A DNA stretch of 37,329 bases from a virus. The stretch spans positions 1-37,329 of IMG/VR virus record IMGVR_UViG_3300045988_163332; one strand, written 5' to 3'. The notes below the pieces were generated by a model. It made no database searches and was not told the origin of the DNA. It saw nothing but the letters and a program-made list of their open reading frames with translations. The translations under genes were made by a program, and so were the position numbers. Every line of letters starts with the position of its first letter. The first letter of the stretch is position 1. Below, in pieces: positions 3,036 through 37,250 of this stretch.

Positions 3036-3914
3036 CTAATCTGTTATTATTAAAGTCCAACCATTAATTATTAAACTTCCACAAGTTAAACCAGAGTTAG
3101 TAACTATTGCTCCTAATACTGTTAGATTTTGTGTAATAGTTCCACCAGATGTTGGAAGTTTTGTATTATCAGCTATTGTAATATTGGCACTACCATTAAA
3201 ACTAACTCCGTTGATAGTTCTAGCAGTTTGCAATTTTGTAGCAGTAGCAGAGTTTCCTATACAAACATCAGCACTATCAGCAGTTGTAGCACTCTTTGCT
3301 TTATCTTCTTTACCTAATTTATTATCTAATAAATTATTAGTTTCAGTTTTAGTATATATATCTGGTTTATTTATTAGTTTTTCATAATCAGTAGTTCCAG
3401 GTTGACCGCTTTGTCCTGGTATCCCTTGTTGACCTCTAGGGGCAGTAAAATCATATGTGCTACCATTAGTTAAAGTCACAGTATAAACATTTCCACCATC
3501 TTCATTAGTATTCTTAAATGTTATACTTTTTACTCCTACTCCATCAGCTCCTTTAGGACCTTGAATACCTTGCTCTCCAGTATCTCCCTTAGGTCCTTGA
3601 GGACCAGTATTTCCAGTTATACCTTGTTCCCCTTTATCTCCCTTAGGTCCTTGAATACCTTGAGGACCTTGGGGACCTTGTGGTCCAGTATCTCCCTTAT
3701 CTCCTTTAGGACCTTGAATACCTTGCTCTCCAGTATCTCCTTTAGGACCTTGAGGACCTTGTATTCCTTGCTCTCCTTTTGCACCAGGTAAACCTTGAAT
3801 ACCTTGTTCCCCTTGTATTCCTTGTTCTCCTTTAGGACCTTGAGGTCCGATATCTCCTTGTTCTCCTTTAGGACCTTGAGGACCTACAACATTACCTATA
3901 ATTAATTTTGGCAT
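3036..3914 (-). CDS. Collagen-like repeat protein, a second tail fibre or fibre subunit.
   Basis: Residues 11..125 are continuous Gly-X-Y triplets (nt about 3540..3884), mostly GPQ, GPK, GEQ and GIQ. The C-terminal part is globular and rich in Thr, Asn and Gly. Confidence 0.6.
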
Positions 3915-3927
3915 AATTAAAACCTCC

Positions 3928-5307
3928 TTATTCTAAAATTTCTAATACCAAATTCCCATCTTCATCTATTGAAAAATTTGGTTGAGTATCATTCTCGTTA
4001 TAATATACAACTAAGTTTCCATCTTCTATTTGGAATATGTACTGACTATTTATAGGAGTGATTACAGCAGTTCCATTATCTCCTTTATCTCCCTTATCTC
4101 CTTTAGGACCTTGTATTCCTTGAGGACCTTGGGGTCCGATATCTCCCTGCTCTCCCTTAGGTCCTTGTTCTCCTTGTATTCCTTGAATGCCTTGTTCGCC
4201 TTTTAGTCCTTGAAGTCCTCTTTCTCCTTGAATACCTTGTTCCCCTTGTATTCCTTGAATACCTTGAGGACCTGTTATTCCTTGAGGACCTTGAGGTCCA
4301 ACTTCTCCTTGTATTCCTTGCTCTCCTTGAATACCTTGAGGTCCATTTTCCCCTCTTTCTCCTTGGTCTCCTTTATCTCCTTTGAATCCTCTTTCTCCTC
4401 TTTCCCCTTTCGGTCCTTCTGGTCCATCATTGCCTTGAATACCTTGAGGACCTCTTCGTGCTAATAATTCTCCTATAATTTCTCCGTCTTCACGGTAGAC
4501 TGTATAGACGTTTCCTTCTGGTAATTCTTTATTAAAACCAACACTTGCTATTGAGTACCCTCTTTCTCCTTTTAAATCTTGCATATGATAGTCTATATAA
4601 TCTTGGATTTCTTTTTCTGCTTCTTCTATTTTTTCTTGTGTATATTTATCTAATTTTAAATAACTATCTGTTTTAAGATAATTATCAATAATTTCTTTTA
4701 AATCTTTTTCTAATTGAATAACTAGCTCTTTTACTCTATTATCCAAATCTTCAAGTAATATTTTTTTTGTATCTTCATAAATCTTATTGAGCAACTCTTG
4801 ATATTTCTCAAATAGTGTAGTTACAGGATAAGTAGCTATCCCATCATCTGACATATACCAGATAGAACCTTTTGGTAAATCTGGTAAACCTAATTGTTTG
4901 GGTATTCCACTATCTACAAATAATTGAGATTTTATAATTTCTTTTTCTGTTCCAAGTATTGCAGCTTTTATTTTAGTAAACATATTATTTAGATTTTCTG
5001 GTGTAATATCTCCTGTACTACTAAAAGTAAAATCTAAATCAAAATAAGGTTCAGACTTAACTATCTTAATATCTGTGTAATCATTCCATATGTCATCTGG
5101 GTAGTTAGTAAAATCAATGTTTCCAGCATTGTATGTGTAATAATCTTTAGGTATAAGGAATATAAAAGCTGTGCTAGTTATAGGATTTTGTTTTTTCCCA
5201 TAGACTTCACAACTTGTCATTAAGTCTGAAAAGCTAGTAGCATACTGTTGTCTATTCTCTTCTAACTTAAAATACTCTTTTTTAAAATTTAACATTTGCT
5301 TAAACAC
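3928..5307 (-). CDS. Tail fibre protein with an internal collagen-like triple-helix region.
   Basis: 459 aa. The N-terminal part is globular. Residues 286..412 are Gly-X-Y repeats (nt about 4072..4452), followed by a short C-terminal beta-rich tail. Confidence 0.6.
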
Positions 5308-5315
5308 CTCTTTTC

Positions 5316-6827
5316 TTAATAATAAGTTGTTAGTGGTCCATCAAAACTATCTTTTAGATATATGCTAGCAAATATCATAGCAGTTCTAAATGAATCTGCG
5401 TCATCAGAAGCTTTATCATTTGCGTCGTGGTCTGGTATATCTAAGTAACAGTTCATGGACTTGTTATATTTTTTGACATAGCCTCCTAATTGTATAACTC
5501 CTATGTTACACTCGTTATTATCTATCTCTACATTTTCAAACTCCTTTCTTATATAGTTGATTTGATTTATTAATGTAGTCATATCATTTTTAGCTAGCTC
5601 TGTCTTAGATAGAGTTCTTACATCACTAAAATAATTTAATCTTATGTAGTCACTTCTTTTTGAAGTTGCACTCCATTCCTCGACATCTCCATCATGTGGT
5701 AGTACCATAGTAGGCTGCATATAGTACCCATTATCTTTGCACCATTTTTTTATATATTGGCAGCAGTGGTCTGGTCCTTGTCCAGTAACTCTATAATGTT
5801 TTATGAATCTAATTCTATTATTGTGAGGGTTCTTTTGAAAAAACCATAATACTGTATGGTCCCTTTTTCCTATATCCCAAGCAACATATAAAGGTTGTTG
5901 TGTCCAGAAATGCCCTGTGTATATTTGAGTATATCTTCTACTTACACTATCCAATAACTCTTCATACCTACCATAAAACTTTATCCTTTCATCTTCATAA
6001 GCTTTTTTTAGTTGTTCTCCATACCAAGCACCAACTAGATGAGTATTGATTTTACATTCCCACTCTTGAGCGTATGAATCGGGGTCCATAGTAAGAGCTT
6101 GTTTTCTAAGTTCTTTATCATTTATTACCCTCTCCCCTTTATAGTTCAAGGAATCTTTTCCAGATTGAATATCTACATACCACATATCTTTAATTTCTTT
6201 ATTTTCTGGTTTACTTAGGATAGTGAAGTAATCTATAAAAAGTTTAGTAAACCAATTATATTTACCCCTTGGTGTAGAGATAAATATTACAAAACCAAAG
6301 TCTGTGTTATTGATAACCATATCAACTGCAGGTTTCATATATTGATAGAACTTTTCTTTTATAAGTGCTGCCTCTGTATAAATAACTCCTCTAGCTCCTA
6401 CCCCTACACTTGCGTCTGGGTTATCTCCTCCACGAAAGAAGATTTTTGCTCCGTTAAATAAAGTTACACTCCAATCTGATTTATTAACTTTAGGTCCTCT
6501 TGGATTTGCTAGTATTTCATCTGGTATAAGATTTTCAAGTAAAGGTAACCCGTTTAATGTCTTCCCATCTACAACTATCTCCTTTACCTGTCTAAAATAT
6601 GGTGCATAGATATAGTAGTTTCCTGGGTGTTGAATAGCTGCTAGTATCATAATGAGTAGTGAAATAAAGTCCTTTCCATATCTTCTATGAGCCATTAGTG
6701 CAAAATACTTTTTCTTATTTTCCAAGACATTGTCCAGAAGTTCTTTCTGTCCTTTGTGTAGATATTTAATAACTTTTTTATAACTGATGGTTACTCTTCT
6801 TTTTGCTGCTCTTCCTAAAAAATTCAA
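5316..6827 (-). CDS. terL: Terminase large subunit (ATPase plus RNaseH-like nuclease).
   Basis: N-terminal deviant Walker A (AHRRYGKDF, nt about 6669..6680). A Walker B-like block follows ([12 protein letters not shown]). Nuclease motifs in the C-terminal half include [21 protein letters not shown] and [13 protein letters not shown]. Its location, separated from the small subunit gene, is unusual. Confidence 0.6.
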
Positions 6828-6852
6828 AACTCCACCTCCTTACCTGTTTGAT

Positions 6853-6889
6853 AAAATAAAAAAAGGACAACCCTTTTAGGTTGTCCTTT
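6853..6889 (-). terminator. Rho-independent terminator (minus orientation) between the giant virion gene and terL.
   Basis: Stem aaaggacaacc / ggttgtccttt with loop ctttta. On the minus-strand RNA it is followed by a U-run (plus-strand A-run 6855..6864). Confidence 0.55.
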
Positions 6890-6905
6890 GATTTTTCTGT
6901 AAATG

Positions 6906-6932
6906 GAAAAAGGCAACTCTAAAAGGTTGCCT
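6906..6932 (-). terminator. Second hairpin with a U-rich tail, in tandem with 6853..6889.
   Basis: Stem aggcaac / gttgcct with loop tctaaaag. A short A-run sits upstream on the plus strand, which is a U-run for minus-strand RNA. Confidence 0.4.
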
Positions 6933-7217
6933 GATTTTCTTAAAATTATTATATCATTAAATACTAAAAAAGTCTATAAAAAGAAAATGGCTGGTATAGT
7001 TGCAGCTATACCAGCGATGAACATACTAAGTCTTTCGTTCTTCTTAGTAATTAAATTATAACAAAAATAACTAGAAAGTTCAAGATATTTTTGTTATAAT
7101 AAGTCTAGCCCACCAAGAAAGGGGGTGAACATCATTAAGTCTTTCGTTCTAAGACTAATAATACTGGTTATTCTGTTTTTCTTAGTAAACAGAGTTGCAT
7201 TATAATTAGTCAAAAAA

Positions 7218-7246
7218 GGGGAGTGTTGCAGCACTCCTCCTTTTTT
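7218..7246. terminator. Bidirectional hairpin terminator just downstream of the stop of the 1633-aa gene.
   Basis: Stem ggagtg / cactcc with loop ttgcag. T6 on the plus strand (7241..7246) and T5 on the minus strand. Confidence 0.55.
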
Positions 7247-10200
7247 ATTCTCCTACTATTTTTTCTGCTAAATCATATCCTGTTTTAGCCATATTAACAT
7301 TTGATGTACCTAGTCCTAGTTTTAAAATATTTGCTCCAGCTTTTTCAAAATCTCCTTTAGATAAATTTTGAGCTATCTGTATAGGTCTTCTTGCTACTGC
7401 TGAACCATTAACTAAAGCCCAAGAGTTTATTTGAGAATCTAGTACTTCCCAAAATGCACTACCTGGACTATCTATTAAATCATCTATTTTTTCATTGATA
7501 GTTGCTATTGGGTCAGTGTAAAAATCTAAGTCGGTTACAAGTGCTAGTCCTCCATATAGTCCTGTTACTCCTAAGATATGTTTGAATAATCTTTTTTGCC
7601 ATATCTTATTGCCCCAATCAAAATGCCCATCTACTATATTAGAGGCGTATAAATCTCTTCCCAATCTTCTCCATTGTTCTTGTATAGAAGTTTTGAAGTT
7701 TCCCATCAACCTCATAAAATTTCTGTGGATAGGATTTTCAATATTTTCAATGACAGCTCTCATAGAAGCATTAGTTTCAGTAGGGGAAATATCAGTAACT
7801 ATTTTGTCATGTAACTTAGTTATTTTTTCAGTAATATTTTTTCTTATTAAGTCAAATTCTTCATTGTATAGAACTCTTCCTAATTGTTTTTCTACTTCTG
7901 ATTTATTTATAAAATCAAATAAGTCAACTTCATTAAATACACCTAACTCATTAAATTCTGGAATATCTTTTAATTTTTTTATGAAATAAAAGTCTAAATC
8001 ATCTATACCTACATTTTTAAATAAATTTTTCATATAGGCAGTATTATTTTTAAATAAATCATCTAAGTCTTGAAATTTACTCATATTTCTTAAAATCTCT
8101 GCACCCTCAAAAAAAGCTGCAAGTTTCATAACCTTTTGGCTCTCTCCATAAAAATTTAATTTATTAAGTCCTGTGTCTATTCCACTAATTATCTTTTCCC
8201 ATTTGCTACCATACTTATTTATCCTTTCTGCTATCTCTCCTGTTACATCATCTGCCTTATCCATAATAGAATTGAAAAATTTTAAAGGTACTGAATATTC
8301 AAATCTACTTCCTAAAGCTTTATCATATTTATCAAACATTTCTTTACTTAGATATAGCACTTGTGCAGCCTTTAAAAAATTTTTATAAGTTTCAGTAATA
8401 CCTGCTGAATTATATAACATAGTGCTAGCCCTTGCCATTGTTGGTGCTTCAAATATAAAGTCCTTTGTAAATTTAAGCCCTGTTAAACTAACTTTATTAC
8501 TATAACTTAAAAAATTAGTAATAGCTTTGTCTGCTATTGTTTTTGGTGGTTTTGTAATTCTTCCTAAATCCATTCCTATTCTATCATCTATTTTTTTCTC
8601 AATGGCTCTAACTAAAGTTTTATAAGTATCATTTGCAGTTTTTCTTTGAGTTTCATTCAAGATTCTTTCTATACCATTCATTCCATGTCCTGGTAAATTA
8701 TCTTTAATGGCTTTAGCTACTGAAATTTCTCTTATAAATCTTCTAATAGCTGTTCTATCAGAAGTCTTATTTTTATTTACAAGTCTTGTTAGATTTTTTC
8801 TTTTTATAATTTTTTCTCCATTAATAAAGTCATCAAATCTACCAAATCTATGAAGATGTCCTCCGAGAAATTTATTTTTGTAACTTCCTTTCTTACTCAT
8901 CATATCCATAGTATAAAAATATTTTGCATTATTTTTTCTACTTTCTAATATATTTTGAGCTATAAGGTTAGTATCCACCTCTTTGTAAAAGTCTGATTTT
9001 TCAATAAATTCTTTTATTTGTGGTATTCCCTCAAGTTTATATTTTTTAACAAGTGCTTTCTTATCTGATGAACTCATACACTCATTAGCTTTAGCCATTA
9101 ATTTTATAATTTTTTCTTTAGGAGCTTTATTCTTTCCTTTAAGATTATTAATTAAAGTTTCTGGTGTTGATTCAAAGAACTCTAAATTATCTTCTGCAAA
9201 AGCATTTCTTATAGTAAGCAATCTTTCTGGGATATTAAGTTCTACTAAATCATCATAACTCAAATCTCCTCTTATAAATTTATCTAAATCAACCTTTTTA
9301 TCATCTCCTAGATACTTCAATATATCTTCTTGTCTTATATATTTTTCTGCACTTAGGTTGTGGTCAAACATAAAATTATTGACAATGTCATCTACTGTTA
9401 TCTCATAACCATTTGTCAATTCTTTCATAGTGCTATAAAACTCTTCTCTTAATCTTAGTATCTCTGGTTCAAGCTCTTTTAAGCTATCTGGTAAACTTTT
9501 ATAATTCCATCTAAATAGATAATGAGTTAGATTTTCTCCATTCTCTTCAAATAAACTTATTAATTTATCTGGATTTAATTTCTCGCCTTTATAAGTTATA
9601 TTGAAAGCATTAGTTAGCATACCTTCCATTTGTTGCTTAGTTTTCTCGTATGGAATAAATAAATTTGTTTCAAGATATTCGCTCATAAGTGATGAAGCTT
9701 GTCCAACGTCTTTAGCTTTCCAAAATATTTCTGGTATATCATTTTTCCACTTAGCATACTTACTAAAACTTTTTCTAAGTTCTGCTATTTTTTTACCTGG
9801 GTCTTTTATTCCTTTTACAGAATCAATCATATTTGAAAATGCTACTATGTCTTCAGTTCCTGTATTTTTAGGTAATTGTAAATCAAGTAATTCTACAGTT
9901 TCAGAATTTATTTTACCATTTTTTAACATGTTATTTATTTTGTCATTTATTATATAACTAATCTCAAAATTTACATCTGGATATTTAGAAAAATGTCCTT
10001 TTGTCATATCTTCTATAGCTTCTCCAAATGTCATATCTGCTATATCTTTTTTTTGAAATTTTATACTCTTAAATCCTGGAGCTTGGTATTTGTCTATTGC
10101 GTGTTCTATTTCATGCCTTAAAGTACCTAGTTTTAAATCTAAATCATCTTTCATCATTAATGGATTTAAACTTATTTTTATTTCTCTTTGGTTACTTGAA

Positions 10201-12146
10201 TTTATCCTACTTCTAGTAACTCCATAAACACTTGTAAATTGCTCTTCAGTTTCTCCTAAATATTCAAAATCTATTTTATATTTTTTCTTATAAAATTCAG
10301 CCATTTCTTCTGGAGTGTTTATATTATATTTTTTTCTAACTGTCTCCCCTGCTTTTTTTATTATTTTTTCATGTATATCTCTTATTTGTGTCTTGTCAAC
10401 TGTGCTATCAAGTCCTAGTTCTTTATAAACTATTTTTTTTACTTCTTCAACACTTATAGGTTTTATTGGCTCTGGGGTTCCATTCATATCATCTACTATA
10501 TTAGTTACTTTTCTTTGAGGTGTTATATTTTTTTGTGTTCCTGGTGCTGCATTAACATCAAGCTCGTATGTATCTCCTAAATATCCATATTGCTCTGTAA
10601 GTCTATAATCTCCATAATATTTCTTACCATCTATTTCATATTCAAAGTTGATATGGGCATCTCCCTTTAACCATTTTTTTCTAGTAATTGGAGTTCCATG
10701 TTCTGTAATATGTACTAAGTCTTGATATGGTGTTTTCTCAATAGCTCCTCTTACATACTTAACATTTGCACCTGGTGGAATAATTCCATCTTTTTCAAGA
10801 TTTGCTTGTAATGTTCCTGTTGGAAAATCTCTATAATTATGCTTTATTTTTCTTTTTTTTCTTTCAAAAGTTTCATTATCAACTATATGATGTTGTACTT
10901 TCATATCTTCAAATAAAGGTTCATAGCCACTATCATTGCCATTAAGATTTTTATCAACCTCTTCCATCATTCCTGGAACATCAACTCTTACATCAGTTAT
11001 CTTGTCTGGGTTAGTCAAGTCTAAAAAGAACTCAAAAGCTTTCTTTTCTCCCTCTCCAAGCTTTCCACTATCAATATATTCTTTTGCTAAATTTCTTATA
11101 AGAATTGGATTTTCATTTAAAATTTTATTGAAGTCAGCTCCGTTTTTAATAAAGTCTATATCTGGGTCATCTATCATTTTCAAGACAATAGACCTAGCAT
11201 ATAAGTCAGCTTGAAATTTATTAACATCATTTATATATAAATGCTTAAATAAAAATCTTTCACTACCTTGAGAGCCTTTATATTCATTTATAATACCTAG
11301 ATTATCTTTTATTCCTACTGTATTTTCTAAATCTTTTATAGTCATATCTCCATTATTTAATATAGAGCTTTCTTGTATTTTTTTATCAGCCTCTGAAAAT
11401 AGATTTATTATTATTTCTTGGGATTTCTTTTTTCTTGCTATATTATCAAACTTAGTTTCTATTTTATTAGCTACCTTACCTATTCCCATTCCTAGACCAG
11501 CAAATAAAAGTCCTGCACCAGCTCCACCAACTCCAGAATAAATAATCTCATCAAGTTCTGGAGTTCTACCCTCTGATATATAAATATCTGCACTTTCTTG
11601 TACCATATTTTCTATACCATTTAAAACTGCCGTTGTTCCAAGTCTACCAGCTACAGAAGTAGCTCCTATATATCCTGCAACATATGGACTTAAAAGAGTA
11701 GTCCCAAGTAATACAGGGAGTTGTCTTACATCAGTAGCAACTCTTAAACTCTCTGCTCCTGCACTCATAGCCCACTTTTGAGTTATATTGGGTTCTAATT
11801 CTATTTTTTTTCTAAAGCTATCTTTAAAGTTACTTGCAAAATCTTTATATTTTATATGGTTTTCCTCTGCCGTTTTTAAAAAATCTATAGGTTTTGTTTC
11901 TCCTGTTGCACTTTTATATGCAGCTCCTAACCAACTATAGTAAGTTGATTTTGCAATATTTTTAGAACTAGATAATATATCTCCTATAATTTCTAATTGT
12001 GGTATATCGTAAGATACTTTATTACCTACAACGTTGAATTTTTCTATATTTTCTTTGTTAGCCTCATAATATTCTTTATTTATTTTAATTACATCATCAT
12101 TACCCTCTAAAGATAATTTATTACCATAAGTTACAAGTCCTGCCAT
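7245..12146 (-). CDS. Giant (1633 aa) internal virion or ejection protein, gp16-like by position. It carries an embedded thermolysin-like (gluzincin) metallopeptidase motif and an N-terminal glycine-rich hydrophobic region.
   Basis: HEIEH is encoded at 10101..10115 and GEAIED at 10008..10025, matching the thermolysin pattern HExxH...NEAISD. A Gly/Ala-rich hydrophobic stretch spans residues about 145..225 (nt about 11472..11714). It is the last of a small/medium/giant trio (178, 694 and 1633 aa). Confidence 0.6.
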   Translation of the reverse strand: MAGLVTYGNKLSLEGNDDVIKINKEYYEANKENIEKFNVVGNKVSYDIPQLEIIGDILSSSKNIAKSTYYSWLGAAYKSATGETKPIDFLKTAEENHIKYKDFASNFKDSFRKKIELEPNITQKWAMSAGAESLRVATDVRQLPVLLGTTLLSPYVAGYIGATSVAGRLGTTAVLNGIENMVQESADIYISEGRTPELDEIIYSGVGGAGAGLLFAGLGMGIGKVANKIETKFDNIARKKKSQEIIINLFSEADKKIQESSILNNGDMTIKDLENTVGIKDNLGIINEYKGSQGSERFLFKHLYINDVNKFQADLYARSIVLKMIDDPDIDFIKNGADFNKILNENPILIRNLAKEYIDSGKLGEGEKKAFEFFLDLTNPDKITDVRVDVPGMMEEVDKNLNGNDSGYEPLFEDMKVQHHIVDNETFERKKRKIKHNYRDFPTGTLQANLEKDGIIPPGANVKYVRGAIEKTPYQDLVHITEHGTPITRKKWLKGDAHINFEYEIDGKKYYGDYRLTEQYGYLGDTYELDVNAAPGTQKNITPQRKVTNIVDDMNGTPEPIKPISVEEVKKIVYKELGLDSTVDKTQIRDIHEKIIKKAGETVRKKYNINTPEEMAEFYKKKYKIDFEYLGETEEQFTSVYGVTRSRINSSNQREIKISLNPLMMKDDLDLKLGTLRHEIEHAIDKYQAPGFKSIKFQKKDIADMTFGEAIEDMTKGHFSKYPDVNFEISYIINDKINNMLKNGKINSETVELLDLQLPKNTGTEDIVAFSNMIDSVKGIKDPGKKIAELRKSFSKYAKWKNDIPEIFWKAKDVGQASSLMSEYLETNLFIPYEKTKQQMEGMLTNAFNITYKGEKLNPDKLISLFEENGENLTHYLFRWNYKSLPDSLKELEPEILRLREEFYSTMKELTNGYEITVDDIVNNFMFDHNLSAEKYIRQEDILKYLGDDKKVDLDKFIRGDLSYDDLVELNIPERLLTIRNAFAEDNLEFFESTPETLINNLKGKNKAPKEKIIKLMAKANECMSSSDKKALVKKYKLEGIPQIKEFIEKSDFYKEVDTNLIAQNILESRKNNAKYFYTMDMMSKKGSYKNKFLGGHLHRFGRFDDFINGEKIIKRKNLTRLVNKNKTSDRTAIRRFIREISVAKAIKDNLPGHGMNGIERILNETQRKTANDTYKTLVRAIEKKIDDRIGMDLGRITKPPKTIADKAITNFLSYSNKVSLTGLKFTKDFIFEAPTMARASTMLYNSAGITETYKNFLKAAQVLYLSKEMFDKYDKALGSRFEYSVPLKFFNSIMDKADDVTGEIAERINKYGSKWEKIISGIDTGLNKLNFYGESQKVMKLAAFFEGAEILRNMSKFQDLDDLFKNNTAYMKNLFKNVGIDDLDFYFIKKLKDIPEFNELGVFNEVDLFDFINKSEVEKQLGRVLYNEEFDLIRKNITEKITKLHDKIVTDISPTETNASMRAVIENIENPIHRNFMRLMGNFKTSIQEQWRRLGRDLYASNIVDGHFDWGNKIWQKRLFKHILGVTGLYGGLALVTDLDFYTDPIATINEKIDDLIDSPGSAFWEVLDSQINSWALVNGSAVARRPIQIAQNLSKGDFEKAGANILKLGLGTSNVNMAKTGYDLAEKIVGE

Positions 12147-14230
12147 TATTCCTCCTTAATAAACTCTTCTACATCAAATACTGCATATCCATTATCAGTA
12201 AATACAGGTTGCCCACCATAGAAAAGTCTTACCTTTGTGCTCCCTATATCTTGTACAAAAGTTATATTTTTCTTATCTCCTATTTCTTTAATAGTTCCAT
12301 TGTAATTAACTTTATATGTATTTTTAGCTATCATTTCATTTATAGCTTTTTGAGTTTTTTCTATATCTCTTTCTTTACCAACAAAACCTCTATCTATTTG
12401 ACCTGTTATAAAGTTAGTTCTCTCCTCTTCTTTTATTATTTTAGGTGCAAATATAACTCTATTATTCCCTAGATTAATAGTATCTAGTCCCTCTGTCATA
12501 GCATTAACTACATTTTCTACCCTGGAATTTACAGTTTCTCTTATTGATTTATCATTTTCTAAAACTCCTTTAAGGAAAGTTCTTTGTTGCTCTGGGGTTA
12601 AACTAGCTATAGGTTGACCTACATATTTTTCTTTTAGTCCTCCTTTATCAGCTAAATCATCTGTTATTACACCACCATATTTAGAATACAATTCTAGTAT
12701 TAGTGTGTCAGTTGCTATTTGAGTTATATCTTTAGTTGCTCTTGTAGCTGCTAAACTTCCATTATTTGCTGCAGCTTGTAGTCCTGCTATTTTACCACCT
12801 GCAGCTATTGAAGTTGTTTTTTTAGGAGCAGCATAGTAAGGAGTATTATTATCAAATTCATAATAAAATTCTGTGTTAAATTCCTTTAGTTCTGAAAAAT
12901 CAGTTATTTGAACTTTATCAAAATTAGCAAGTATTTTTCTATTATCAGAACTATATACTTTGTCAAATTCATCTTTAAAGGTAGTATTCATCTGGTATGT
13001 TTCCATAAGCATACTTCCACCTATTATATTCTCATCTGTGGTATCATAGAAGTTTTTTACTGCTTCATATCCATAACCATTAGCCATCAATTCAGCTTCT
13101 TGTTGCCTAAAATTCATTATCCCTTCCCCAGCTAAATTAGGATTTTTATATACTTCTGTGGTGTCATTTAAACCTTTTTCTTTCCAAGGAATACTATATC
13201 CTAAATTTATAGCTTCATTTACTCCTGTTACAGTTACCCCATTTTTATAGTTTATAGCTTTTACCATTGTACTCTCTGGTATATATCCATCTGCTGCTAC
13301 TTGGTCTTCTTTTAAAGATAATTCCAAAGGATTTGTTTTTTTCTTTTGTTCATATTTTAATCTCTCAACCATAGTATTTTGCTTATTTAATTTTTCTTTA
13401 TTATTTATTCTTGTAAGTCCACTTGTTATAGTAGATTGAAATTTGTTATAGTCATCTACTGTCAAATAAAATTCTCCTGTATCATTTTTAAAGTTGAGAT
13501 CTGAAAACTTTTCCATAAATTGAGAAGTATTCCAAGTAGACATATTTTCAAGAACTGATTTACCATTTGGTTGATTTACAAAAGATGACACATAACTTAC
13601 TATAATATCTTGTCTTTGCTTGCTAGCAAGTTCAATAGCTTTTGTCCCATCTATATATCCTGCTTCTATTGCTCTATCTAAATCTTGAGCTACATTGTAA
13701 AAACCTTGTACTGCTCCTTGATAATCTCCAAGCATAGCAACTGATGAAAGATTATCTCCTTTCATTCTTATAATTCTGTTAGCTTCATCTTTTTGAATTT
13801 TCTCATTATAGTCATTGTATTCAACTAAATAATTTACATTTGATTTTTCAAGTTCTCCTGTTACCATAGAACTATATTTTTCTAATATAGAACCATCTAT
13901 CCCTAATTCCTTTCCATCTTTTTTAAATTGCTCTATATTAGCTTTTATTTCACTCTCTAAAGAGTTATAAGAATCAAAATTATGGAATAATTTTTTATTT
14001 ATTTTTCCCTGGTTATCTCTATCTAATATCATTTTAGACATAGAGGCAGCAAATTGCTGCCCGAATGTTTCTGCTTGTATTAAGTCTTGCTTTTGTTTTT
14101 TCTGGAAAAGTTCCTCAAGTTTACTAGCTACATTTCTCTCTACTCCAAAATCTGCAGCTATATTTAATTGTGGTACTGCTCTACCACTTGGTCTATTTAT
14201 TTTTAAAGGTTGTATTAGTGTTCCTGCCAT
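12146..14230 (-). CDS. Internal virion protein (694 aa), gp15-like by position.
   Basis: Start and stop codons overlap those of the neighbouring genes. No enzymatic motif recognised. Confidence 0.5.
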   Translation of the reverse strand: MAGTLIQPLKINRPSGRAVPQLNIAADFGVERNVASKLEELFQKKQKQDLIQAETFGQQFAASMSKMILDRDNQGKINKKLFHNFDSYNSLESEIKANIEQFKKDGKELGIDGSILEKYSSMVTGELEKSNVNYLVEYNDYNEKIQKDEANRIIRMKGDNLSSVAMLGDYQGAVQGFYNVAQDLDRAIEAGYIDGTKAIELASKQRQDIIVSYVSSFVNQPNGKSVLENMSTWNTSQFMEKFSDLNFKNDTGEFYLTVDDYNKFQSTITSGLTRINNKEKLNKQNTMVERLKYEQKKKTNPLELSLKEDQVAADGYIPESTMVKAINYKNGVTVTGVNEAINLGYSIPWKEKGLNDTTEVYKNPNLAGEGIMNFRQQEAELMANGYGYEAVKNFYDTTDENIIGGSMLMETYQMNTTFKDEFDKVYSSDNRKILANFDKVQITDFSELKEFNTEFYYEFDNNTPYYAAPKKTTSIAAGGKIAGLQAAANNGSLAATRATKDITQIATDTLILELYSKYGGVITDDLADKGGLKEKYVGQPIASLTPEQQRTFLKGVLENDKSIRETVNSRVENVVNAMTEGLDTINLGNNRVIFAPKIIKEEERTNFITGQIDRGFVGKERDIEKTQKAINEMIAKNTYKVNYNGTIKEIGDKKNITFVQDIGSTKVRLFYGGQPVFTDNGYAVFDVEEFIKEE

Positions 14231-14766
14231 TATTTACCACCCCATAAACTTCCTATCATACTTCCATATCCTCCACCTTGAATACCTTTATTTTTGTTTA
14301 TACTTGTTATTTCGTCCATTTTTTTCATATGTGTGTAGTCCATAAAAGCATTAGCTACACTTAACCCTGCACTCAATCCAAGTTGCTTATAAGTTGCTCC
14401 TAAATTATAATTATTTTGAGCTTTGGTTAATTTAAGTCCTCCTTGTATATCTGTCAGTGCTTCACTCTGTCCTGTCTTAGCTTCTAGGAATGATTTTTCA
14501 TGTGCTTTCATTCCTTTACTAAATAATGTGCTAGCCGTATCTATTCCAGCATTAGCAAAAGCTGCTTTTTGAGATTTCATTCTAGTTGTTATCTCTTCCA
14601 TAGCTGATGTATAACTCCTCATAGTGTTGGTAGTTTCTTTAGCTGCATTTACATCAGCTACCATATTATTTAATTTTGTTTGATTCTTTGCTCTTCCAGC
14701 GTCTGCCACTGAACCGAATAGACTTAGTCCAGTGCTTGCTAATTGCATTATCATTAATGGATTCAT
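14230..14766 (-). CDS. Small internal virion protein (178 aa), gp14-like by position.
   Basis: Translationally coupled to the 694-aa gene. Sequence is Ala, Gly and Ser rich. Confidence 0.45.
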   Translation of the reverse strand: MNPLMIMQLASTGLSLFGSVADAGRAKNQTKLNNMVADVNAAKETTNTMRSYTSAMEEITTRMKSQKAAFANAGIDTASTLFSKGMKAHEKSFLEAKTGQSEALTDIQGGLKLTKAQNNYNLGATYKQLGLSAGLSVANAFMDYTHMKKMDEITSINKNKGIQGGGYGSMIGSLWGGK

Positions 14767-14781
14767 ATTCTCACACTCCTA

Positions 14782-16578
14782 TTATCCTATTTCTGCAAAT
14801 ATTCCTACTATTTCAATTTTCTCATTATTGAGTTGCTCTATAACTAATTCCTCTTTTCCAATGTTGGCCATGTCTATGTAGTGAATTTTTTCATAAAAAT
14901 TATCTGTGTTTTCTCCAAAGCCTACTGATTTAGTTTGATTATTTATTTTTAAGTTATAATTTCCATAACACAAAATCTTACAATTTTTAAATCTTGCTTT
15001 CATTAAAAATTCTGGAATTGGCATTTGGTAGTTTTGTGACATAGTTGTTTTTGGTAGTTTTAACTTTAAAGGCTCTACTTCTGTTTCTGAATAAGTATAT
15101 ATATCTATATTTTCATTATTAACATTGAAGATATAGAGTTTATCATCTATATTAAGATATTCATTTATTCCAGGCAATTTAGGTACTCTAGTCCAACATA
15201 ATATATTTTCTGAATAATTATAGCTTAATGCTCTTCCACCACTTACTGTATCTACTCCTATAATGTTGTTTTTACCAATTTTATGAAAGTAAATATCATT
15301 GATGTTATCCATTAAGTGTCCAGAATATAGTGTTACTTCCTGCACTACATAAGCACTATCTGCCCCTACGTCTTGTATTTGATAGATTCTATTTGAGCTA
15401 TCAACATAGTATATTGCGTCGTCTGCCTCTGTCCAATACCCAAGCCCTTTAGGTCTTGGTAGTTTTTGGTCGTACAGTGCTGATGTTTCAGTAGTTAGTC
15501 CCTCATTTAATTGTGTGGAATAAATTCCTCTATCTGTTATTACTATCAAGGATTTATAAGCTATAAACTCTTTAACAGTATTAACTTCATTACCAGTAAC
15601 AAAGGTAGTAAATCCATCATTATCATCTGTTGATTGTCTAAAGTTAGTAGAGTCATATACCCTACTTGACACTATCGCTGATGGGTTACCTGCAACATTC
15701 CCAAATATAACTCTTCCTTTATACTCTGCCACTACTGCTGGATAACCACCATTGAATAAAGATTCAGAGAAAGTTATATCCAGGATATTTATTTTTCTTT
15801 CAGCTTCTGGAGTTGATGAGGTAGGAATATCTATTCCAGTTGCTGGTGCTGTAACTTGTGTAGTAGTTATCTTTTGTTTTCCATCTCTATTCTCTATTTT
15901 ATTGATTCTAAATTCTCCAGCCATATAGGAAATAGTTCCCTCTTTTAATTTGTCCAGGAATGTAGGTTTAAATACAGGACTTGAGATAGTAGATTCAAAG
16001 ACAACACTTGCTCCAGATTGATACCATTGAAATACTTGTTTTTCTTCATCTGTATATTGATATTGAGTTTCCACTCTTTTTACTGGAGGATTTACTATAT
16101 TTTCCCAATACTCTACTACATCAAACTCTTGAGTATCTTCCGTAACTCTTATCATTTCTGGTTTTTTATTAGCTACACAAGTTATAACACTATTTTGGAA
16201 TTGTGCTATACTTAGATTCTCAATCTCTTCATCTGTGTAATTTACTTCTATTTCCTTTATAACTTCAAAGTTATCTTCTCTTAATATAATTACTTTTAAT
16301 TCAGTAAATAAAAAAAGATACCCACTAAGCGAGGTATCTTTCTTTTGAATTTTATATTTAAAAATCTTGAAAGCATTTATAATAGTTTTGGTTGTAACTG
16401 CTAGAATAGTAGCAACTTTTTTTAATGCTGGGAAATTAGTTATTCCTGCTGAAGAGGTTATAAGTCCATTTTCTAAATAGGCTAATCCTCTGTTTGGTAT
16501 ATCTGTATCTACCCTAAAACATAGTGGTGGGTCTATCTCCCCTAAAGAGAACCTCCCCTTTTTTTCATAATATTTCAT
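14782..16578 (-). CDS. Virion structural protein (598 aa), in the position of a tail tubular protein B.
   Basis: Long ORF following the 167-aa gene. Assignment rests on synteny only. Confidence 0.4.
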   Translation of the reverse strand: MKYYEKKGRFSLGEIDPPLCFRVDTDIPNRGLAYLENGLITSSAGITNFPALKKVATILAVTTKTIINAFKIFKYKIQKKDTSLSGYLFLFTELKVIILREDNFEVIKEIEVNYTDEEIENLSIAQFQNSVITCVANKKPEMIRVTEDTQEFDVVEYWENIVNPPVKRVETQYQYTDEEKQVFQWYQSGASVVFESTISSPVFKPTFLDKLKEGTISYMAGEFRINKIENRDGKQKITTTQVTAPATGIDIPTSSTPEAERKINILDITFSESLFNGGYPAVVAEYKGRVIFGNVAGNPSAIVSSRVYDSTNFRQSTDDNDGFTTFVTGNEVNTVKEFIAYKSLIVITDRGIYSTQLNEGLTTETSALYDQKLPRPKGLGYWTEADDAIYYVDSSNRIYQIQDVGADSAYVVQEVTLYSGHLMDNINDIYFHKIGKNNIIGVDTVSGGRALSYNYSENILCWTRVPKLPGINEYLNIDDKLYIFNVNNENIDIYTYSETEVEPLKLKLPKTTMSQNYQMPIPEFLMKARFKNCKILCYGNYNLKINNQTKSVGFGENTDNFYEKIHYIDMANIGKEELVIEQLNNEKIEIVGIFAEIG

Positions 16579-16587
16579 TGTTGCCTC

Positions 16588-17091
16588 CTATCTTAAATCC
16601 TCTATATTAATTATTGGAGGATTGTCATGTATAAATTTATTTTGCTCTGCTAAGAAAAGTTCATATAATCTACTTAATTCTCCAGCTTTAGAAAGTGGAG
16701 CTGCCATCATAATTGCAAGTGAAATACTAGCAAGTCTTGTATATTTCTCATCTATTTCTTCTGGGTCTATATTTTTCAAATATTTAAATAAAAAATTATT
16801 TTTTGAACTGATTAATTTATCCCTATAAGCCTCCACACCACTTGTTAATGATTTAATATACCCATCTGGTTTTAAGTAAATTATCTTCCCAAGCATATTT
16901 TGTACATCAGCTTTTCTTAGTACCACTTCATCTATATTAATTCCATAATTTTCATTTTGTAACATATCATTTATCATCATCATATAATAGTTATCTCCAA
17001 CCTTATAAGCTGATGATGTTTCCTGGTCTGCCTCATCATAAGGAAAGCCAAGTTCTAACATAGCTGCTCTAATTACTTTGTGTTTTTCCAA
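16588..17091 (-). CDS. Virion structural protein (167 aa), in the position of a tail tubular protein A.
   Basis: ORF with an RBS. Assignment rests on synteny only. Confidence 0.4.
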   Translation of the reverse strand: MEKHKVIRAAMLELGFPYDEADQETSSAYKVGDNYYMMMINDMLQNENYGINIDEVVLRKADVQNMLGKIIYLKPDGYIKSLTSGVEAYRDKLISSKNNFLFKYLKNIDPEEIDEKYTRLASISLAIMMAAPLSKAGELSRLYELFLAEQNKFIHDNPPIINIEDLR

Positions 17092-17266
17092 TTATCCTGT
17101 TACCTCCTTCTATAAATTTTTTCATTACTTTTAGTTGCTCTGGAGTATTTGCTAATTCAACTCCAATTTTTCCTACAACTAAAAAGAAAGTTCTTGCTTT
17201 GATATATTTGTTTTTTAATAAAAATCTCATAAATTTAAAAAATATTATAAATAATTTACCTTTCAT
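17069..17266 (-). CDS. Small hypothetical protein (65 aa) that overlaps the recombinase stop.
   Basis: Good RBS: ggagg, 8-nt spacer, then ATG. Its start overlaps the recombinase stop codon. Confidence 0.35.
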   Translation of the reverse strand: MKGKLFIIFFKFMRFLLKNKYIKARTFFLVVGKIGVELANTPEQLKVMKKFIEGGNRIIGKTQSN

Positions 17267-17954
17267 TTTCCTGTGCCTCCTCTAGTATAATATTTTTCTT
17301 ATACTTGTAATATGTATTCTTAGTTATCCCTAGCAGTGTAAAGACTTCTATATCTTTAAGATTTCCTCCAAAATCTTTAGCTAGTTTTTTAATTTTCTCT
17401 CTCATCTCCTTTTCTTTCTTGGTAGTATAAGTATCTCCTTGTTTTCTACCTAATATAGTTCCTTTAGCTTTAGTAACTCTTAGTCCCTCTTTTGTCCTTT
17501 CTCTAAGGTCTAATACTTCCTTTTCAGCTTGGTCAAATGCTATTTTAATTTGTTCTTGAGCTAATATCTTCAATACTTCATTGGTTGCGTCTATGTATAT
17601 ATCAGCTATTTTATTTCCTGTTGAATCTATTTTATTCTCTAAAGCTTTTTTATAAAGGGCTGTATTGATATATCCCTCTTTTAAAAATATAAGTTCAATA
17701 CCTCTTTCTACAAAATTAAAATATTCTTTTATTCCCTCTTCTGCATTTCTACTCATTCTACTAACAGAATCAAATATAATTGTATCTCCAGGTTTAACTA
17801 TTTTTTTTAGCTTACTCCATTCTTTTCTATCTGTTGTAGTTCCTGTATATGCTTCTTGAAATACTTTAGCAGTTGGATATATCTTTATGATATTTTCCAC
17901 CTGTCTTAAAATATTTTGTTTTTTTGTAGATACTCTGCAATAACCGTATATCAT
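17256..17954 (-). CDS. Small serine recombinase (resolvase or invertase family) with a C-terminal HTH.
   Basis: The N-terminal block YGYCRVSTKKQ contains the catalytic Ser motif of serine recombinases. 232 aa, with a C-terminal helix-turn-helix (LLGITKNTYYKY). Confidence 0.8.
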   Translation of the reverse strand: MIYGYCRVSTKKQNILRQVENIIKIYPTAKVFQEAYTGTTTDRKEWSKLKKIVKPGDTIIFDSVSRMSRNAEEGIKEYFNFVERGIELIFLKEGYINTALYKKALENKIDSTGNKIADIYIDATNEVLKILAQEQIKIAFDQAEKEVLDLRERTKEGLRVTKAKGTILGRKQGDTYTTKKEKEMREKIKKLAKDFGGNLKDIEVFTLLGITKNTYYKYKKNIILEEAQENER

Positions 17955-24748: not shown

Positions 24749-24962
24749 TTTCTTCTTTTACCTCCTTCGTAAATATCTCCATGTATAAACTGTTTACTCC
24801 AGTTATTTCCTTCACTTTCCCTACTGTATCAACTCCTTTGTCGTTCATGATAGAAACTCTATTGAGTTCGAGCATTAAGTATAGTTCGATTAGTCTTTTT
24901 AAAGCTCTATCATCTCTATATCTTCTTTTTAACTCTTCGTACTCTTTTCTCTCTTCTGTCAT
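24741..24962 (-). CDS. Small hypothetical protein (73 aa).
   Basis: ORF with overlapping stop and start codons. Confidence 0.4.
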   Translation of the reverse strand: MTEERKEYEELKRRYRDDRALKRLIELYLMLELNRVSIMNDKGVDTVGKVKEITGVNSLYMEIFTKEVKEEND

Positions 24963-26467
24963 TGTTCTATCATTCCCCCTTGTTGTGCAGCTATCATAGC
25001 GTTCATTTCCTCAACTTGTTTTTCTGTTTCCTCTCCAGATTTCCACTCTTTATTATTGATTCTAAATCTTTTTTGTTGAGCGTCTATATATTCAGCTTGG
25101 TTCATATTAGCTGCTGCAACCTGTGGTCCTAGAGTGCTTGCTATATTTTGGAAATACAACATATTTCTTTCAAGGTCATCTTGGTCTTGTGCTATTGTTA
25201 GTGCATTGTAGAATCTTATCTTTAATCTTGGATTTTCCTGTAAAGCTTTAATTTTAGATATATCTATAATGCTAATCTTTTGTAGACATTGGAAAACTTT
25301 TATAACTATCTCTCTTAAAAGTTCCCTTTGCATTAGAGCATAGGTTGGCTCTATTTGCTTAGCGAACTCTGTTGTTACTAGTTGTGTTGTTGTAGCAGTA
25401 ACATTCTTTAGCTGGTCTAAGTTTTGAGCCGTTTCAAATATATTGATATAGAATATATCTCTCAAAAGTTCCTTGTACATGTCTAGGTTAAAGAACTCCA
25501 TATTAGCATTTTCTCCCCTGTTGAATGGTATTATCTGATTTTGTACTGGCGACATTCCCATCATAGATATAGCTCCTGGTTCATCTATTCTTGAGTTCTG
25601 AATATATTTAGCCTCTCCATACCCCAGATAACTTGGTCTAGCTTGTTTCTTAGCAATACGTCTGATGTTGGCTTTAACTTCTTTTAGTCCTTCAATTTCC
25701 ATTATTGCTTTAACACAAGGTCCTATACCATATGGACTATCTCCAATACTTTCATATCTTGCAACTATCCACGGATTGTAAGTGTCTATCCTATAATCTA
25801 AAACGTCTGCAAACTCATTTGAAGTAGATACTACATAGTGAAACATTTTAGTTTCTTGGTCGTATATTGTACCTTCCCACAACTCTATCTCATCATCTTG
25901 TGACATTCTTTGAACCTTTTCAGAGTTATAAGCATTTTCTCCGAAAAGATTAAGAATCTGATGTTTTCTCACTTTACCTGCATTGTAGAATGTATCTCCA
26001 GGTTGTTTACCTCTTCTTTTAGTAAGATAAACATTTATATTGGGTACTGGTTGAAATTCCACAGGATTTGCAATTTTACCAGTAAATCTAACTTTGAATA
26101 CTGCTGTTCCTATTAGATAGTCCATAAGAATTACAGCTTTCTCTGTTTCAAAGTTAGAATTTTCTTGAATCTCATCAAATACTATTTCTGTTATGCGTCT
26201 AAAGATAATCTTGTCATCTCTTGATATATCTTCAAACCTTGGTGTTTCTATCCAAGCCCAGATATGATTACTATTAAGTATCATAGCTGACAACTTGTTA
26301 GCTAACTTAGTAGCATATGCTAGTCCTGTACTGTCTACACCATTTAAATTAATTTCTCTTGGTAGAAAATGTGCTCTAGCTTTCAAATACCAAGCTAGTA
26401 TTACATTTCTTTCCTGTTGTGCCTCCTGGAATCTACTACGAAATAGATTTTTAATTCTATCTTCCAC
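24959..26467 (-). CDS. Portal protein (502 aa), assigned by size and position.
   Basis: Long ORF immediately upstream of the scaffold and capsid genes. No family-level motif verified. Confidence 0.5.
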   Translation of the reverse strand: MEDRIKNLFRSRFQEAQQERNVILAWYLKARAHFLPREINLNGVDSTGLAYATKLANKLSAMILNSNHIWAWIETPRFEDISRDDKIIFRRITEIVFDEIQENSNFETEKAVILMDYLIGTAVFKVRFTGKIANPVEFQPVPNINVYLTKRRGKQPGDTFYNAGKVRKHQILNLFGENAYNSEKVQRMSQDDEIELWEGTIYDQETKMFHYVVSTSNEFADVLDYRIDTYNPWIVARYESIGDSPYGIGPCVKAIMEIEGLKEVKANIRRIAKKQARPSYLGYGEAKYIQNSRIDEPGAISMMGMSPVQNQIIPFNRGENANMEFFNLDMYKELLRDIFYINIFETAQNLDQLKNVTATTTQLVTTEFAKQIEPTYALMQRELLREIVIKVFQCLQKISIIDISKIKALQENPRLKIRFYNALTIAQDQDDLERNMLYFQNIASTLGPQVAAANMNQAEYIDAQQKRFRINNKEWKSGEETEKQVEEMNAMIAAQQGGMIEQ

Positions 26468-30181: not shown

Positions 30182-30832
30182 CTAATAATATCTCATAACA
30201 CTTCTTAATCTTCCAATGACTCTAAGCTCTGATTGGTCCATTATTTTAATTTTAGGGTAATATGGATTTATACTTTTTAAAAAAATATCTCCCTCATCTT
30301 GTACGAATTTTTTTAAATATACTGCTCCTTGATAATTGACAACTATAATTTTATTTAAAATACAGTCTATGTTTTTAGTGTCAACTATAACTATATCTCC
30401 ATCTTTTATCTCTGGTTCCATAGAATCTCCAGCAACTCTTATAGCTATATTTCCTGTTTTTGCTAAATCTTCTGGCACTTCTATATATTCCAGAGTTCCA
30501 TAATCATTAAAACAACCATATCCAGCTGAAGCTTGAATATCTGGATAAAATGGGATCTTTTTTTGATTAACATTTTTTATTTGCTTTAATTGTAAAAACT
30601 CTTCTTTTAAACTCTCTGGTGCCTTTTCTAAATCTACTAATTTTAATAACTGAGCATAACTTTCTTTATCCATTATTTGTCCTAATTGCTCAATCGTTGT
30701 TGCTGGAATCTTTCTTTTTCCATTTTCAATATTTGTAATAAAAACTTGACTACATAGCAATTTATCGGCTAAATCGACTGCTCTTAAATTATTTTTCTTT
30801 CTAAATTCCTTAATAAATTCTCCTGCTGTCAT
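30182..30832 (-). CDS. CI-type repressor: N-terminal XRE HTH fused to a LexA/S24 autopeptidase domain.
   Basis: HTH block LRAVDLADKLLCSQVFITNIENGKR. S24 motifs GDSMEP and a K further downstream (VAGDSMEPEIKDGDIVIVD). Confidence 0.8.
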   Translation of the reverse strand: MTAGEFIKEFRKKNNLRAVDLADKLLCSQVFITNIENGKRKIPATTIEQLGQIMDKESYAQLLKLVDLEKAPESLKEEFLQLKQIKNVNQKKIPFYPDIQASAGYGCFNDYGTLEYIEVPEDLAKTGNIAIRVAGDSMEPEIKDGDIVIVDTKNIDCILNKIIVVNYQGAVYLKKFVQDEGDIFLKSINPYYPKIKIMDQSELRVIGRLRSVMRYY

Positions 30833-32548: not shown

Positions 32549-32680
32549 GATGTTAGATTAGAAAGACTTGATAACTACTTTGATGAGGAGTTAGAAGAAG
32601 TTAGAGAAGCTGCAGCAGATATGACAGAAAAAGAGCTTAGAGAATTTTTAGAACTTTTAAATATTGAGGAGTGGTTTTAA
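32543..32680 (+). CDS. Small acidic protein (45 aa) starting MTDVRLERL. The ORF-track start at 32432 is a spurious upstream extension through the repeat.
   Basis: The ATG at 32543 is preceded by ggaggtgg inside the repeat unit. Confidence 0.45.
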   Translation: MTDVRLERLDNYFDEELEEVREAAADMTEKELREFLELLNIEEWF

Positions 32681-33192
32681 TGGCAAATATAATAAATTTA
32701 TTAGAGGACAAATTAGCATTAAATGAACTTTGGGAAAATTCCATTGATGAGAACACAGGAGAAATAAAAGAGTGTGAAGCTTTAGAGGCTTTAACAAAAG
32801 AAATAGAGCAAGATTTGAGCAGTAAAACAGGTAGAATTATACAGGTATTTCAAAATAATAAAGCACAAATAGAAGTGCTGGACAAGGAAATAAAAAGGCT
32901 TGAAGCTAGAAAAAAATCTTTAGAGAATAAAGATAAAAATTTTAAAAACTTTTTAAAATATACTCTTGAAAGAATAGGAGTAAAAAAAATAGATACTATC
33001 TTTGGAATAATAGGAATAAAAAATAATCCTGCAAGTGTAGAGCTTATAGACAAAGACAAAATACCTGCAGAATTTAAGACAATAAAATATGTTGAAGATA
33101 TTTCAAAAACTGAAATTTCAAAAGCTTTAAAGGCTGGGGTAGAAGTTCCAGGAGCAGAACTTAAACAAAGTACAAGTTTATATATTAAATGA
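32680..33192 (+). CDS. Gp157-like protein (Sipho_Gp157 family), of the kind commonly paired with phage annealing proteins.
   Basis: 170 aa and coiled-coil rich. The ATG at 32680 overlaps the upstream stop. It sits just upstream of the Rad52-like gene, as in other Firmicute phages. Family call from memory. Confidence 0.4.
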   Translation: MANIINLLEDKLALNELWENSIDENTGEIKECEALEALTKEIEQDLSSKTGRIIQVFQNNKAQIEVLDKEIKRLEARKKSLENKDKNFKNFLKYTLERIGVKKIDTIFGIIGIKNNPASVELIDKDKIPAEFKTIKYVEDISKTEISKALKAGVEVPGAELKQSTSLYIK

Positions 33193-33265
33193 TTTAGTTT
33201 TTATAGGTTCCCCAAGAGTCTTGGGGTACTTATTAAAAATTAAATTGGAGGTGGTCTTTATGACT
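33191..33265 (+). repeat. Copy 3 of the triplicated intergenic unit (palindrome 33208..33229).
   Basis: Sequence atttagtttttataggttccccaagagtcttggggtacttattaaaaattaaattggaggtggtctttatgact. Confidence 0.7.
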
Positions 33266-33883
33266 AAAGAAAAATTTCAAGAAATGTATTTAAAAGATTT
33301 AACAGGTATGATAGAAACAATAGACACAGGAAAAAGAAAGCTATCATATATTAGCTGGGCTAATGCTTACAAAATGGCTATGGAGCAAGACCTATCAATG
33401 AGTTATGAAATATTAGAAGATTTAGAGGGGTTTCCTTTATTCTCAAGAGGGGATTGCCACTTTGTAAAAACTACTGTTACTATGTTTGGAGTAACTAAAA
33501 AAATGATGTTACCTATTATGGACAATAGACATAATTCTATAAGCAAACCTAACAGTAGAGATATAAACGACAGTATAATGAGATGTCTTGTAAAAAATAT
33601 AGCAATGTTTGGTATAGGACTATCATTATACACTGGAGAGGATTTAGAAAAGTATAAGGAATCTAAAGAAGATAAAGAGGTTAAGGAAGTTGAAGAGCAA
33701 ATTACACCAGAAGAGAGGTCTAAATTTATAGAAGTTATAAACAAAAAATACTCTAAAGAGGATATAGACAAGGCTATATACTTAGTTAAGGAAAATGGTA
33801 GATTTGAATTTAATATCTACACAGCAAGTAAAAAAGAATTAAACTATTTAAAAGCAACTTTAAGAAGTTTAAAAACTGCATAA
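33260..33883 (+). CDS. Rad52-like single-strand annealing protein (Sak family).
   Basis: The ATG at 33260 follows the repeat RBS. YISWANAY and DSIMRCLVKNIAMFGIGLSLY resemble the Rad52 N-terminal-domain motifs YIS and D.lkRaL.sFGnaLG. Acidic C-terminal tail. Confidence 0.5.
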   Translation: MTKEKFQEMYLKDLTGMIETIDTGKRKLSYISWANAYKMAMEQDLSMSYEILEDLEGFPLFSRGDCHFVKTTVTMFGVTKKMMLPIMDNRHNSISKPNSRDINDSIMRCLVKNIAMFGIGLSLYTGEDLEKYKESKEDKEVKEVEEQITPEERSKFIEVINKKYSKEDIDKAIYLVKENGRFEFNIYTASKKELNYLKATLRSLKTA

Positions 33884-37225: not shown

Positions 37226-37250
37226 AGGAATTTTTCCTCTATTTTTTTTT
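37224..37250 (+). terminator. Rho-independent terminator abutting the start of the right terminal repeat.
   Basis: Stem agagg / cctct with loop aattttt, followed by T9. Confidence 0.6.

Follow-up and report, generated by a model that had tools for sequence, protein, structure and literature searches.

Zincin-type metallopeptidase (MPTase) domains are the commonest domain in proteins injected along with the DNA by phages and plasmids, and HExxHxxD is the signature of one phage-type clade of polyvalent-protein MPTases (PMC5512222; here and below we draw on part of that survey). Two roles have been proposed for these domains, autoprocessing of the carrier protein and an effector action on host proteins (PMC5512222), and no substrate is reported for the domain class in those parts of the literature on which we draw (PMC5512222, PMC7213743). 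One giant carrier, gp47 of phage phi24B (2807 amino acids (aa), polyvalent, with LPD38), is a virion component according to mass spectrometry, and an ejection role has been put forward for it (bioRxiv 10.64898/2026.04.10.717836). The C-terminal domain of gp50, the virion RNA polymerase that N4 ejects with its DNA, consists of an HExxH-bearing part, C1, and then a large helical part, C2, without known relatives (PMC13434306). Among homologues of the T7 ejection proteins gp14 and gp16, membrane-spanning elements are a universal feature, and an N-terminal lytic transglycosylase is not universal among those of gp16 (PMC8954989). Here we describe a giant protein encoded by a viral DNA of 37,329 nucleotides (nt), positions 1 to 37,329 of IMG/VR record IMGVR_UViG_3300045988_163332, the whole of which we call the window. 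The open reading frame (ORF), at 7245-12146 on the minus strand (as are all coordinates below unless marked +), encodes 1633 aa and occupies the position of T7 gp16; its product is a putative internal virion, or ejection, protein. We identified within it a zincin-like MPTase core (aa ~571-763, 9858-10436) that, judging from residue conservation and a predicted fold, is very probably a genuine protease domain. Related phages swap this domain as a cassette, and its catalytic residues stay fixed. The kind of domain is already known and the family is new; it is left unassigned among the 12 clades of MPTases that Iyer et al. 2017 distinguish.

The initial annotation, made from the letters alone, had reported the 1633-aa ORF with HEIEH at 10101-10115 and GEAIED at 10008-10025, and had read the two motifs together as a thermolysin-type signature. 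Translation gives 1633 aa without internal stops, and both motifs lie where they were placed. Chance alone would give only 0.02 HExxH motifs in a protein composed like this one. Taken by itself the motif is still weak evidence, and we judge it real because it is invariant in 42 homologues and lies in a predicted fold. H678, E679, H682, E728 and Y731 never vary across these 42 sequences, whose mean column identity is 27%, and conservation reaches at least 90% at R677, D685 and H718. HEIEH (aa 678-682) is predicted to supply two zinc ligands, H678 and H682, and the catalytic base, E679. D685 (10092-10094), three residues past HExxH, gives the pattern HExxHxxD. The near-invariant H718 (9993-9995), part of a GHF/GHH motif, is a possible extra active-site residue, and E728-I-S-Y731 of 'FEISY' (9954-9965) contains a candidate Glu ligand and the conserved Tyr. 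Going by these conservation patterns, E728, 46 residues after H682, is likely the third zinc ligand, with H718 or D685 as alternatives.

The likeness to thermolysin did not hold up. GEAIED (aa 708-713) is present but unconserved, being replaced in homologues by GDRLNR, GVKLNE, EEVLNK and others; there is no match to Pfam M4, thermolysin is absent from the structural neighbours, and the invariant downstream Glu is E728. What the domain has in common with thermolysin (M4) is the gluzincin logic of HExxH plus a downstream Glu. The thermolysin Glu motif, of NExxSD type, lies ~20 residues past HExxH; GEAIED begins 26 residues past H682. At ~190 aa the MPTase domain is also much smaller than thermolysin, which has ~316 aa.

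A zincin fold around the motif, one of the outcomes on which the earlier proposal depended, was predicted by AlphaFold2 from the 42-sequence alignment with a predicted local distance difference test (pLDDT) score of 90.3 and a predicted template modelling (pTM) score of 0.85 for the domain. In the model, two helices and three strands are followed by the long helix that bears HExxH, then by a short helical insert and lastly by the helix on which E728 and Y731 lie. In domain-model numbering, HEIEH falls inside predicted helix 115-134, and E728 and Y731 inside predicted helix 173-184. The predicted core, made of an N-terminal helix, a three-stranded sheet and two catalytic helices, is the zincin core described in the part of PMC5512222 used here. 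All strong structural neighbours of the model are peptidases. The Spartan SprT domain scores highest (8.4), followed by minigluzincins (4jix, 4jiu and 4qhf; about 6), CapP (5.9), ArdC (5.3), M32 carboxypeptidases (about 5), and Wss1 and IrrE/PprI (4.7); a search of BFVD gave weak SprT-like viral matches only. Sequence identity of the domain to SprT/Spartan/Wss1, ArdC and the minigluzincins is 11-17%, and no DNA-binding or zinc-ribbon subdomain was seen in it. In SprT and Wss1 the third zinc ligand is a His a few residues past HExxH (HExxHxxxxxH). Here the sequence after H682 reads AIDKYQAPGF, with no His. Pfam searches with ten domain sequences at E-values up to 10 returned noise only. The only protein matched by the domain and full-length profiles in a PDB sequence search, a designed repeat protein, was rejected as a spurious match to a low-complexity helical stretch.

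The domain is bracketed by sharp breakpoints. Nucleotide identity to the corresponding gene of one relative (P0002, at locus L008) runs at 93-100% as far as gene nt ~1680, drops to 40-78% until ~2358 and recovers to 95-100% beyond it, which delimits a recombination or exchange cassette at 9789-10467 (aa ~561-786) containing the MPTase domain. At the protein level the two are 99% identical outside aa 585-780 and 39% identical inside, and another pair (P0004 and P0010) is 40% identical outside the cassette and 81% identical inside. Because the breakpoints bracket the domain, we consider it an exchangeable, self-contained module; a copy with an intact catalytic set is present in every family member. 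Exchange of this kind is not described in the part of PMC5512222 on which we draw.

A tblastn search of 50,697 phage records with the giant protein gave no match, and ten full-length homologues (99-40% identity), all metagenomic, were recovered from a collection of 5.8 billion proteins; R677, H678, E679, H682, D685, H718, E728 and Y731 are invariant in their alignment. A search with the aa 555-840 profile, covering 1.84 billion cluster representatives, matched only 38 clusters. Among the 17 strong matches, 15 are full-length members of the giant family (1488-2023 aa) and two are fragments; the strong matches include the already known P0008 and P0009 and a 206-aa fragment near-identical to the window protein (P0012). 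About 20 weaker clusters (E-values of 1e-10 to 1e-4), mostly other proteins of 1400-1750 aa, have in common the motif set RHExxHxxD ... GH[HF] ... [FW]ExxY, and nearly all remote relatives of the domain are proteins of 1400-2000 aa. The conservation of the motif in homologues on which the earlier proposal had been staked is thus borne out, with H678, E679 and H682 unchanged throughout the 42 sequences.

Profile-profile alignment showed that the region in common with two remote groups is aa 571-763. With a third (P0028) the alignment extends over aa 139-751, taking in the Gly-rich region as well as the MPTase domain (hhalign probability 99.2%); a tblastn search of the phage collection with P0028 gave no match. 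By Pfam, a further remote relative (P0027) carries LPD38, which belongs to phage-type polyvalent proteins; the C-terminal part of P0027 has matches among large hypothetical proteins from Pelagibacter phage HTVC034P, Vibrio phage FGH and Thalassomonas phage BA3, as well as from Bacillus phages Page and Pony and from Stx2-converting phages. Overall, this is a previously unannotated sequence family of phages, probably of human-associated Fusobacterium, without counterpart among the 50,697 phage records.

The rest of the giant protein has a different character. Kyte-Doolittle windows of 19 residues exceed 1.0 in three segments (aa 142-163, 198-229 and 1519-1543). Since the highest value is 1.47, these segments are hydrophobic yet fall under the classical transmembrane score. 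The first two, which are Gly/Ala-rich (11460-11723), correspond to the Gly-rich hydrophobic region that the initial annotation had placed at aa ~145-225, and are a candidate membrane-active region. Within it, the stretch GVGGAGAGLLFAGLGMGIGK begins at aa 205 (GVGG...), and the region has conserved Gly positions in the homologue alignment. The third segment (7518-7592) lies inside the C-terminal 793 aa (aa 841-1633, 7248-9626), which are almost wholly alpha-helical in a model of moderate confidence and for which the PDB yielded no structural neighbour. A small module reading KHNYxDF ... IIPxxAxV ... FEYExxGKKYYG lies shortly before the protease cassette, at aa ~430-555 (~10482-10857); judged by eye, it occurs twice in the longer family members P0011, P0016, P0019 and P0023. 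Pfam searches recognised no second enzymatic domain in the giant protein or in five longer family members.

Several features point to a role in ejection. The giant gene is the last of a small/medium/giant trio directly downstream of a tail tubular A-like gene (16588-17091; phrog_394, E 4e-5) and a tail tubular B-like gene (14782-16578; phrog_376, E 1.7e-28), which serve as synteny anchors; the latter has tblastn matches to 'putative tail tubular B' of pelagiphages. The small gene (14230-14766, 178 aa), in the gp14 position, encodes a protein with a hydrophobic helix at its N-terminus and a C-terminus rich in Gly, and the middle gene (12146-14230, 694 aa), in the gp15 position, overlaps the giant gene by TAATG. 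Both trio junctions (12146 and 14230) are TAATG stop/start overlaps, from which we conclude that the trio genes are translationally coupled. The order tubular A, tubular B, small, medium, giant is kept in two relatives, with trio sizes of 201/686/1624 aa (L002) and 178/703/1637 aa (L008) against 178/694/1633 aa in the window. Neither the giant, the 694-aa nor the 178-aa protein matched a Pfam or PHROG family.

The same gene order is found in T7 from gp11 to gp16, where the trio measures 196/747/1318 aa, and both the order and the sizes of the trio are also paralleled in a pelagiphage whose internal virion proteins are annotated; a BLASTP comparison of the 694-aa protein with gp46 of that group's HTVC100P gave no match. 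Like the giant protein, T7 gp16 is encoded by the third and largest gene past tail tubular A/B, contains hydrophobic segments, and is mostly helical in its C-terminal part. The enzymatic domains differ: that of gp16 is an N-terminal glycosidase and that of the giant protein an internal protease (aa 571-763), with no SLT or lysozyme match by Pfam in the giant protein. This widens the range of enzymatic modules in proteins at the gp16 position beyond wall glycosidases. Hydrophobic segments occur in both the small and the giant trio proteins. Based on gene order, sizes, TAATG coupling and hydrophobic segments, the giant protein is probably a virion protein with a role in ejection. The trio proposed by the initial annotation, modelled on T7 gp14/15/16, therefore stands as regards gene position, sizes and coupling; a sequence or fold link to gp16 was not found.

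Other giant phage proteins with MPTases offer parallels for the domain itself. As in the polyvalent proteins described in part of PMC5512222, the MPTase here sits in a huge protein encoded among virion genes, has a minimal zincin core with HExxHxxD and a variable insert between the catalytic helices, and has remote relatives that carry LPD38. Polyvalent proteins bear LPD accessory domains; Pfam found none in the giant protein, and LPD38 was seen only in the remote P0027. The earlier suggestion of a polyvalent injected effector accordingly matches that survey as regards the type of domain; a second enzymatic domain or an LPD domain was not recognised by Pfam. The giant protein also parallels N4 gp50 in having a zincin-type domain and then a helical region without structural neighbours, although it lacks an RNA polymerase module. 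Gp47 of phi24B is likewise a giant metallopeptidase protein of a short-tailed phage, with the motif HEWFHSLD (HExxHxxD); it has LPD5, LPD1, MuF_C and LPD38, and the giant protein has none of these.

The role of the domain most likely is that of an active protease delivered at infection. The fold, the conserved catalytic set, the gene context and the exchange of the cassette are shown by the data; packaging, ejection, metal ligands, activity and substrate are points that we infer. In this scheme zinc would be bound by H678 and H682, which share a helix, and by E728 from a later one, E679 would activate water, and D685, H718 and Y731 would line the pocket. The protease would be inert inside the capsid, exit through the tail with the DNA, refold, and cut a protein at the start of infection. 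Its target may be a protein that varies between hosts, or the domain itself may be something that hosts recognise; a defence or envelope protein would be a candidate on the host side. We favour a host-side target or recognition over self-cleavage because divergent alleles occur in near-identical phages and because cassettes recur in backbones that are only 40% identical. Self-cleavage purely as housekeeping seems less likely, and self-cleavage may also occur alongside. Taken as a whole, that the giant protein is a third internal virion protein with an active protease and a target on the host side is a proposition we hold to be evenly balanced.

Several observations weigh against that proposition. 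There is no detectable sequence similarity to T7 gp16 (hhalign probability 0.4%, with an 11-sequence profile), the solved gp16 structure shows no similarity to the C-terminal 793 aa, and hhalign against gp44 of HTVC100P, a pelagiphage internal virion protein, gave nothing significant. The resemblance to N4 C1 is confined to the motif, hhalign again finding nothing significant, and that to phi24B gp47 is likewise limited to the motif (hhalign E 0.047). With one recognisable enzymatic domain, the giant protein does not satisfy a strict definition of polyvalent. Such domains have no direct precedent as effectors: in ArdC, the only structurally similar plasmid protein to have been tested genetically, protease activity was not needed for anti-restriction, the one phenotype tested (PMC7213743). 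We had considered ArdC as a precedent for protease-dependent anti-restriction, and dropped it for that reason. Finally, domain mosaicism is common in ejection proteins generally (PMC8954989), so that the swapping of cassettes is not in itself a sign of an arms race.

A more specific version of the host-side proposal, which we put forward tentatively and think less likely to be right than wrong, is that the cassette encodes an injected anti-defence or host-takeover protease, whose alleles differ in the host proteins that they cut or in the host sensors or inhibitors that they escape. Recombination at the borders of the domain would then let related phages of Fusobacterium exchange alleles, as happens with receptor-binding modules. 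If true, this would be the first ejection-protein protease with a defined role in an arms race, and the domain that is commonest in polyvalent proteins would gain a function. Phages that are 99% identical save for a ~680-nt protease cassette, with catalytic residues fixed and in a genome of 37 kb, amount to a natural experiment, and the cassette family makes the question of what MPTases do experimentally approachable.

The alternative that survives best is autoprocessing, in which the MPTase would cut its own polypeptide, in the capsid or after ejection, and part the N-terminal membrane-active region from the helical C-terminal one, letting each take up a separate location in the envelope. This is the favoured hypothesis for the domain class in the part of PMC5512222 used here, which also reports that P1 DdrB is processed before packaging, and it fits both the placement of the MPTase between two large regions of different character and the intact catalytic residues in every family member. 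However, no further effector domain that could be released is recognisable, and the N4 virion RNA polymerase, which carries such a domain, is packaged unprocessed (PMC5512222, same part). The exchange data also speak against it: since cassettes move between backbones of 40% identity, a site cleaved in cis would have to travel within the cassette or be very unspecific, and neutral housekeeping leaves the several very divergent alleles in 99%-identical phages unexplained. We regard autoprocessing as the sole role of the domain as possible, though rather unlikely.

Less probable again, and in our view improbable, is that the domain is a structural relic or a non-protease HExxH domain, whose fold would serve assembly or packaging, or which would catalyse some reaction other than proteolysis. 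The MPTase region of the N4 protein is required for encapsidation (PMC5512222, in the part used here), ArdC functions independently of its protease (PMC7213743), and HExxH occurs in non-protease enzymes too. Against this, the invariance of H, E, H, E and Y at a mean column identity of 27% is hard to explain without catalysis, and every strong structural neighbour is a peptidase. Least supported is wall degradation, in which a metallopeptidase in place of the gp16 lytic transglycosylase would cleave peptidoglycan cross-links for the ejection conduit, as the initial annotation had proposed: the giant protein does occupy the position of the T7 wall-hydrolase carrier, Pfam and PHROGs picked out no further wall hydrolase of the virion among the trio and tail genes, and the authors of the phi24B gp47 work suggest wall degradation too (bioRxiv 10.64898/2026.04.10.717836), but because the structural neighbours are protein-cutting zincins and not wall hydrolases, no Pfam model matched the giant protein, and an endolysin and a holin are encoded separately, we consider this very improbable.

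The genome around the giant gene is consistent in layout with a phage that has a T7-like structural module. The window begins and ends with the same 89 nt (1-89 and 37241-37329), so it represents a complete circular assembly of ~37,240 base pairs; the guanine-plus-cytosine (GC) content is ~30%. The late operon on the minus strand encodes a portal-like protein (24959-26467; phrog_332), the tail tubular A/B-like proteins, the trio, the large terminase (5316-6827), and then an adjacent pair of tail-fibre proteins with collagen triple-helix repeats (3036-3914 and 3928-5307). Adjoining the tail tubular genes upstream is a gene for a serine recombinase or DNA invertase (17256-17954; Pfam Resolvase, phrog_125), which is also present in the relative L008. 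Lysis genes comprise a holin (526-981; Phage_holin_4_1) and an endolysin (1246-1650; phrog_465).

An S24/LexA-like repressor (30182-30832), a Rep3 replication initiator (34387-35544, +) and a ParA-like partition protein (35554-36312, +) together suggest, as far as gene content can, that the phage is temperate and plasmid-like, a phage-plasmid; no integrase was recognised among the ORFs of the window that were scanned. Also encoded are a Gam-like protein (32671-33192, +) and a Sak-like annealase (33221-33883, +). The only lead to the host is the holin, which is 76% identical to a holin on a 6.5-kb contig of a Fusobacterium sp. metagenome-assembled genome. Based on this match, with which the GC content is consistent, Fusobacterium is the probable host. 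The contig could be phage DNA itself. A scan of the 185,579 species-representative genomes of GTDB found no relative of the giant protein, and so no prophage copy that would name the host.

Immediately after the stop codon of the giant gene lies a terminator-like hairpin (7220-7237). The 417-nt intergenic region between the giant and terminase genes (6828-7244) contains seven terminator-like hairpins, compared with 0.3 expected, along with promoter-like sites on the minus strand, in a layout like that of short promoter-terminator units. A search of this region against Rfam yielded no family at its gathering score. These hairpin and promoter units may be small RNAs.

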